Assembly: GCF_003334255.1 (NCBI RefSeq)
Contig: NZ_QOWU01000278.1
DNA length: 231 bases
Source of the DNA: Escherichia coli
Lineage (GTDB): Bacteria > Pseudomonadota > Gammaproteobacteria > Enterobacterales > Enterobacteriaceae
Reading direction: 5' to 3' (one strand)
This document shows, piece by piece, positions 1 to 231 of the stretch. The notes below the pieces were generated by a model. That model worked only from the letters and a program-made list of their open reading frames with translations, ran no database searches and had not been told where the DNA came from. The position numbers were made by a program, and so were the translations under genes. Numbering within the stretch: the first letter of the stretch is position 1; every line of letters starts with the position of its first letter.

Positions 1-231
1 TTTCCTCTTCTTATTTTGCAGTCGTCTTCATTCATTACCACGTCCAGACGCCAGTGCAGCTTATTCTCCACGTGCCAGTGATTTCGGATCGCTGTGGCGA
101 ATTTCTCAGCGGTTAAATCAGCAGAACTGATATAATATCTGACCGTCATTTCTGGCTCTTTCTTTTGTTCTGCTATTATGGACCGAAAGGAGACTGCCAC
201 GCATAATTTCTTCAGCCCTTTCCATTCAAAC
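1..231 (-). CDS. ISAs1-family (H-repeat-associated) DDE transposase, internal fragment; partial at both ends, with start and stop codons outside the window
   Basis: Seen in sequence: the reverse-complement frame with codons at plus-strand 230..3 is open for all 76 codons and translates to [76 protein letters not shown]. The other two minus frames have stops at plus 226-228 (TGA) and 212-214 (TGA). The plus frames have stops at 79-81 (tga), 128-130 (tga) and 114-116 (taa). Established knowledge: the HW-x-EN-x-LHW-x-LD-x(3)-EDD block is the hallmark C-terminal motif of ISAs1-family transposases, and the peptide matches from memory the E. coli H-rpt proteins (YhhI/YdcC/YbfD-like paralogs). No gene symbol is given because the paralogs are near-identical and 231 bp cannot tell them apart. 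Confidence 0.93.
1..231 (-). mobile_element. Interior of an ISAs1-family insertion sequence (H-repeat / ISEc1-like); terminal inverted repeats and boundaries are not in the window
   Basis: Inferred from the transposase CDS call. ISAs1-family elements are single-ORF insertion sequences, so a transposase-internal window lies inside the element. No inverted repeats or target-site duplications are visible, so the element boundaries and whether the copy is complete are unknown. Confidence 0.8.

Follow-up and report, generated by a model that had tools for sequence, protein, structure and literature searches.

Insertion sequences of the ISAs1 family, in the ISfinder description, are about 1.2-1.5 kb long and carry a single open reading frame (ORF) between terminal inverted repeats that start with CAGGG. 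The prototype is ISAs1 from Aeromonas salmonicida, and ISKpn31, ISArsp11, ISPmar4, and IS1358 also belong to the family. ISArsp11 is 1306 bp long, with a CAGGG terminus and a 10-bp duplication (PMC6305408), and ISPmar4 is among identified mobile elements (PMC3281130). In Escherichia coli, ISEc1, or H-rpt, is the "H-repeat" of the Rhs loci, with copies that include yhhI (H-rptB), ydcC, and ybfL/ybfD. According to the literature, transposition of H-rpt has not been observed (PMC3032704). Our search for literature that treats the ISAs1 family, IS1358, and the H-repeat together found none, and the apparent matches to "ISEc1" were prefix matches to other IS names and were discarded.

Here we analyze a 231-nucleotide stretch of E. 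coli DNA, referred to below as the window. The window is very probably an internal, undamaged piece of an ISEc1 transposase gene whose protein is a Tn5-like RNase-H-fold DDE transposase with the triad D109/D172/E306 (YhhI numbering). The feature is already annotated and curated as a member of the ISAs1 family, specifically ISEc1/H-rpt.

Results

The window is a part of yhhI

The original prediction had placed a conserved 27-residue transposase motif at positions 3-83, with the strand unstated. Translation of 83..3 on the minus strand gives exactly this peptide; the plus strand at 3-83 encodes an unrelated peptide, and the plus-strand reading was therefore dropped. The frame that holds the motif is open on the minus strand from 230 to 1 (76 codons, no stop), in agreement with the claim that the block has neither a frameshift nor a stop, and each of the remaining two minus-strand frames of the window contains stops. 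Two features are assigned here.

1..230, minus strand: interior part of the ISEc1 transposase gene (codons 252-327 of the 378-codon yhhI-type ORF), which encodes the last part of the beta-insertion subdomain together with the catalytic helix (open frame, K-12 yhhI identity, NF033564)
3..83, minus strand: the reported 27-residue motif, residues 301-327 (translation, conservation)

On its own, the 76-residue translation of the window aligns with positions 227-296 of the 314-position NCBIfam model NF033564 ("ISAs1 family transposase") and scores 90.6 bits (E = 1e-25), over the curated cutoff of 70 bits, and the ISAs1-family reading put forward for this DNA is thereby supported from the fragment alone. 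The same translation matches Pfam DDE_Tnp_1 with E = 8.6e-6, and an Rfam scan of both strands of the window matched no family. At the nucleotide level, the window and E. coli K-12 yhhI (L001:4001-4231) are 100% identical, and residue mapping assigns the window to residues 252-327 of YhhI. The window's identity to the K-12 paralogs ydcC and ybfL is 97%; with 7 mismatches in 231 positions to each of them and none to yhhI, the window carries the yhhI-type allele. Of 5426 complete E. coli genomes, 5234 contain a 100%-identical chromosomal segment, at a median of 3 places per genome, and this segment is annotated as "yhhI: ISAs1-like element ISEc1 family transposase."

The complete gene and the ISEc1 element

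At the identical K-12 locus, yhhI is an uninterrupted ORF of 378 amino acids, and the full gene is free of stops and frameshifts. It directly follows rhsB-yhhH and a truncated "lyase/HEAT-repeat" pseudogene, and yhhJ lies downstream of it. Comparison of the K-12 copies defines ISEc1 as a 1291-bp element (L001:3105-4395) with one ORF. Its left end (IRL) is CAGGGAAAGAT and its right end (IRR) is CAGGGCAAGAT, both with CAGGG termini; as it reads in the element, the right terminus is ...ATCTTGCCCTG. These ends, which lie outside the window at the identical K-12 locus, form an imperfect terminal inverted repeat in which 10 of 11 and 14 of 18 positions match.

The full YhhI protein consists of DDE_Tnp_1_assoc (PF13808; residues 8-94, E = 1.9e-33) and DDE_Tnp_1 (PF01609; residues 102-343, E = 1.7e-29), and only a portion of PF01609 is encoded inside the window. 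The HMM match, the PF13808-PF01609 architecture, the D/D/E residues, and the size and ends of the element all agree with membership in the ISAs1 family, as does every protein-level property tested.

At its left end (position 3105), the element abuts a "lyase / HEAT repeat domain" pseudogene (L001:2758-3108) that lacks its C terminus. The element, or an Rhs-tip rearrangement that brought it there, may have cut this gene.

Conservation of the block

As a word-indexed search gave close relatives only (best 120 matches), we used 50%-clustered representatives. A set of 1.84 billion proteins clustered at this level yielded 29,902 relatives, and YhhI was aligned with 124 full-length representatives at 35-54% identity (125 sequences; alignment A1). 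The invariant columns of A1 are R17, G110, K111, E151, K196, R232, R236, H302, W303, E306, H310, and D314, and D109 and D172 are each 99% conserved. These residues are also unchanged in a protein classed by PGAP as the ISAs1 prototype type (31% identity) and in ISKpn31 (46%). Substitution at the conserved E/K positions was named in the original prediction as a result that would speak for a decayed remnant. The D/D/E residues are unsubstituted in YhhI, the ISAs1 type, and ISKpn31, and across the 125 sequences of A1 they are conserved at 99% (D109 and D172) and 100% (E306).

When information content was scanned in segments of 27 residues, two peaks appeared, one at 148-174 (3.17 bits/column), surrounding the second Asp (KSNEITAIP...TIDAM), and the other at 299-325 (3.07 bits/column). 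The exact block 301-327 reaches 2.94 bits/column, compared with an average of 2.19 for the protein, and takes 28th place among 352 overlapping segments. The block had been described as the most conserved in ISAs1 transposases; it is one of the two most conserved, but it does not hold this position alone, since 148-174 scores slightly higher. Conservation reaches 85% or more in 14 of the 27 columns of the block, and YhhI has the usual residue at 13 of these 14. The exception, M317 in place of the usual F, is a tolerated variant present in 14 of the 125 sequences. The conserved codons within the block are the following.

24..29, minus strand: E319 and D320 codons, a near-invariant acidic pair (E+13/14) at the C-terminal end of the catalytic helix (98-99% conserved)
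42..56, minus strand: codons for H310 to D314 (H-W-R-L-D), with H310 (E+4) and D314 (E+8) invariant and L313 at E+7 (column counts)
75..80, minus strand: H302 and W303 codons, invariant in 125/125 at E-4 and E-3 (column counts)

Assignment of the catalytic glutamate

Of the triad, only E306 is encoded inside the window, D109 and D172 being outside. E306 is invariant in 125 of 125 sequences down to 35% identity, as well as in the ISAs1 and ISKpn31 types. Three further features are assigned with the help of a structural model.

36..110, minus strand: predicted long catalytic alpha-helix, residues 292-316 (DSSP on the AlphaFold2 model)
66..68, minus strand: GAG codon for E306, assigned as the putative catalytic Glu of the D109/D172/E306 triad (conservation, model helix, Pfam column)
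126..209, minus strand: last two beta-strands (259-269 and 278-286) of the predicted four-strand insertion subdomain (model secondary structure)

An AlphaFold2 model based on A1 (pLDDT 95.2, pTM 0.92) displays the canonical DDE-transposase topology. In this model, D109 lies in the strand 105-113 and D172 immediately after the strand 168-171, a four-strand insertion (221-286) separates the second Asp from the Glu, and E306 is located in the middle of the helix 292-316. Family gap columns mark IAEQ 270-273 (window 165-176, minus strand) as a 4-residue insertion specific to the ISEc1 lineage, located in a hairpin loop of the beta-insertion subdomain; this loop coincides with the lowest internal confidence of the model (block pLDDT 85).

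A Foldseek search of the PDB with the model placed five Tn5 transposase entries at the top (E about 1e-9, TM 0.50-0.56), followed by piggyBac. At the sequence level, PDB searches (phmmer with YhhI, and the A1 profile) gave chance-level matches only (E about 1). One of these was CheY, obtained with the YhhI query and rejected; another was YenC2, an Rhs-type protein obtained with the A1 profile, whose non-significant match was not accepted as a link to the neighboring Rhs genes. Alignment of the family profile with the single Tn5 sequence by hhalign gave a probability of 0.06; the Tn5 sequence used here had first been verified against PDB chains.

The catalytic residues of Tn5 transposase are D97, D188, and E326. 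Tn5 matches PF01609, a 60-residue fragment of it puts E326 at model position 164, and the corresponding fragment of YhhI puts E306 at position 163 or 164. The local register is identical, with R-W-R-I-E in Tn5 and H-W-H-V-E in YhhI. As sequence-level comparison fails, the equivalence of E306 and E326 rests on fold, topology, and the Pfam model common to both proteins, and is uncertain by one column. We assign E306 as the DDE glutamate, with D109 and D172 as its partners. The proposal that the block contains the glutamate of the DDE triad agrees with the invariance of E306, its position in the middle of a helix in a Tn5-like model, and its placement on the Pfam column of Tn5 E326.

The family has no downstream basic residue at the canonical position

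A basic residue downstream of the glutamate had also been anticipated, with a note that the residue assignment was inference. This part of the original prediction does not apply to the family. In A1, K/R occupancy is 27% at E+2 (K308), 8% at E+6 (R312), and 0% at the canonical E+7; K308 and R312 stand in variable columns, and E+7 is Leu in 98% of the sequences. Conserved basic positions are found elsewhere, at R300 (E-6; 100% K/R), K/R323 (E+17; 90%), and R325 (E+19; 90%). E-7 is Ile or Val, and E-4 is His in 100%. The signature of the ISAs1 family can be written as R-x-H-W-x-[IV]-E-N-x-L-H-W-x-L-D...F-x-E-D. Since the family lacks the canonical Lys/Arg seven residues past the Glu, it would be mislabeled by annotation rules based on "E plus downstream K/R."

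Copies of ISEc1 and their surroundings

ISEc1 occurs at 1 to 17 places per genome, and a few of the copies are on plasmids. Six full-length 1291-bp copies were inspected: K-12 yhhI (L001:3105-4395), ydcC (L002:7673-8963), and ybfL (L003:8683-9972), a copy at the ybfA-ybgA site (L006:1501-2791), one on a plasmid beside an RHS core gene (L007:1357-2647), and one beside an Rhs-type toxin gene (L008:1501-2791). All six adjoin Rhs-type genes or sit at the rhsC locus, and no flanking direct repeat, such as a target-site duplication of 8-10 bp would leave, was found at any of them. A target duplication is a property of individual insertion events, and its absence therefore bears on mobility and history rather than on family membership. 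An empty yhhI site with contiguous flanks was found in none of the 5426 E. coli genomes.

Several arrangements at these loci were observed in addition. The RhsC locus (L003:8303-10926; ybfQ, ybfL, ybfD) is a head-to-tail array of a 380-bp 5' fragment, a full-length pseudogenized copy, an 889-bp copy with an internal deletion, and 67 bp of a 3' end. In the RhsE region, the yncI pseudogene (L002:6594-7218), immediately upstream of the ydcC copy, is a second ISAs1-family relic, far more diverged, with 67% nucleotide identity and an IRL-like CAGGG end at L002:6471. In strain Ec-U14-2, the rhsC region between ybfA and ybgA (L006:1501-3038) has shrunk as a whole to a single copy of ISEc1, a fragment of symE, and an additional solo IRR-like end, which suggests a deletion by recombination between H-rpt copies.

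Between yhhI and ydcC, dN/dS is 0.19 over the whole gene (12 synonymous and 9 nonsynonymous substitutions) and 0.04 within the window (6 and 1), estimates based on 21 substitutions only. K-12 YhhI carries T198 in the "KGNQ" motif, right after the invariant K196 (L001:3840-3842, outside the window), where 124 of 124 relatives and YdcC have Asn; the T198 allele was found in only 4 of 71 close-relative clusters. Judged from these sequences, T198 may lower or abolish the function of the yhhI copy. With no duplications, no empty site, no observed transposition, and T198, the present-day activity of ISEc1 is doubtful.

Discussion

Our results place the window within the ISEc1 transposase gene and assign to the block that it encodes a role in a DDE active site. 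In the modeled fold, D109 is located on core strand one, D172 immediately follows strand four, and E306 is on the long helix past the beta-sheet insertion. By homology, D109, D172, and E306 would bind two Mg2+ ions, and the triad would catalyze hydrolysis at the CAGGG-terminated ends of the element and strand transfer into target DNA. The 27-residue block corresponds to the catalytic helix and the following loop, with H302, W303, E306, H310, and D314 as the ISAs1 family's own version of the IS4/Tn5 "YREK" region.

An open frame by itself is weak evidence for a gene in a sequence of this length, because 11% of composition-matched shuffles of the window contain some fully open frame. The frame and the motif could thus be a chance resemblance in non-coding or otherwise-coding DNA, were it not that the window matches NF033564 at E = 1e-25, over the curated cutoff, is identical to an annotated gene, and retains the family residue at 13 of the block's 14 highly conserved columns. 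The NF033564 match and the identity to annotated yhhI refute a chance origin, to which we give practically no credence. A more serious question is whether the window belongs to a decayed or truncated ISEc1 copy and is intact only by chance over 231 bases. Partial copies are numerous in E. coli, as illustrated by the three tandem defective genes ybfQ, ybfL, and ybfD at the K-12 RhsC locus, and a copy covering 80% or more of the element occurs in only 4937 of the 5343 genomes that have a match. The window, however, matches the intact yhhI allele at every position and has 7 mismatches to the K-12 pseudogene ybfL, and 6 of its 7 differences from ydcC are synonymous. Among the perfect matches listed, moreover, the annotation in 25 of 25 names an ISAs1-family or ISEc1 transposase and shows no mention of a pseudogene. 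These observations make a pseudogene remnant unlikely, and an undamaged piece of the gene remains the reading that we prefer.

A different view of ISEc1 would be that it is no longer a mobile element at all but a domesticated, immobile host gene at Rhs toxin loci, with a host role such as rearrangement of the Rhs C-terminal tip. Its near-universal presence (5234 of 5426 genomes), the purifying selection implied by an omega of 0.19, the location of all six copies at Rhs-type genes or the rhsC site without target duplications, the lack of an empty site in 5426 genomes, and the report that transposition has not been observed (PMC3032704) are all consistent with this view. On the other hand, both CAGGG terminal inverted repeats are kept, and the copy number varies from 1 to 17 with some copies on plasmids, as expected of a mobile or recombining repeat. 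Other members of the family are mobile (ISArsp11, PMC6305408; ISPmar4, PMC3281130), the dN/dS estimate comes from just 21 substitutions, and no host function is known. We consider domestication very unlikely, and interpret ISEc1 as an insertion sequence of the ISAs1 family. The absent target duplications and empty sites serve as a mild reminder that ISEc1 has never been shown to move.

The overall importance of the locus is small, as annotations of this gene already exist for thousands of E. coli genomes and its IS family is curated. What the analysis contributes is a description of the family at the level of residues, with the triad D109/D172/E306 in YhhI numbering and a Tn5-like fold.

Comparison with known systems

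Among the structurally related enzymes, the piggyBac and piggyBat transposases have a DDD triad, are eukaryotic and much larger, and have no sequence similarity to YhhI. The Tn5 (IS50) transposase of the IS4 family (PDB 1MUH, 1MM8, and 3ECP) is closer in fold, although its identity to YhhI is about 10% and no sequence-profile match is detectable. YhhI shares with IS4-type enzymes the RNase-H-fold DDE core and the beta-strand insertion but not the YREK signature, and for this reason it is not a member of the IS4 family. Whereas Tn5 and other IS4-type enzymes have Y-(2)-R-(3)-E-(6)-K, ISAs1 members have His at E-4, His at E+4, and Leu at E+7. The invariant His residues at E-4 and E+4 occupy the positions of Tn5 R322 and K330; comparison of the register would place H302 at the position of R322 and match W303 with Tn5 W323. 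The ISAs1 family retains Trp at E-3 and has, in addition, an Asp at E+8 that is invariant and an E-D pair at E+13/14. The N-terminal domain also differs, being PF13808 in YhhI and Tnp_DNA_bind in Tn5, and YhhI lacks the Tn5 dimerization domain. Judging from the model, YhhI is like Tn5 transposase in fold and probably in chemistry. It is a remote possibility that the replacement of Arg/Lys by His in this version of the YREK region, with H302 and H310 invariant and Leu at E+7, reflects a handling of the DNA end that is mechanistically distinct from that in Tn5.

Within the ISAs1 family, YhhI is only 31% identical to the ISAs1 type and 46% identical to ISKpn31, and nevertheless the PF13808-PF01609 architecture, the invariant D/D/E, and the signature are the same, and the element size of 1.2-1.5 kb and the CAGGG ends are common to ISEc1 and the family. 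The examined ISEc1 copies differ from other ISAs1 members in having no 8-10 bp target duplications. The ISEc1 clade is further distinguished by the 4-residue loop insertion at 270-273 and by Leu in place of Asn at residue 332 (L001:4242-4244, 15 nucleotides past the 5' edge of the window on the minus strand), where 96% of the family has Asn. This Leu is found throughout the clade (AAELFSGIR in about 90 close relatives) and is therefore a lineage trait rather than a sign of decay. The closest known system is ISEc1/H-rpt itself, represented by yhhI (H-rptB), ydcC, and ybfL/ybfD. The window belongs to this same element, with no detectable difference from K-12 yhhI, and the 1291-bp length, the CAGGG termini, and the position downstream of rhsB-yhhH are the same.
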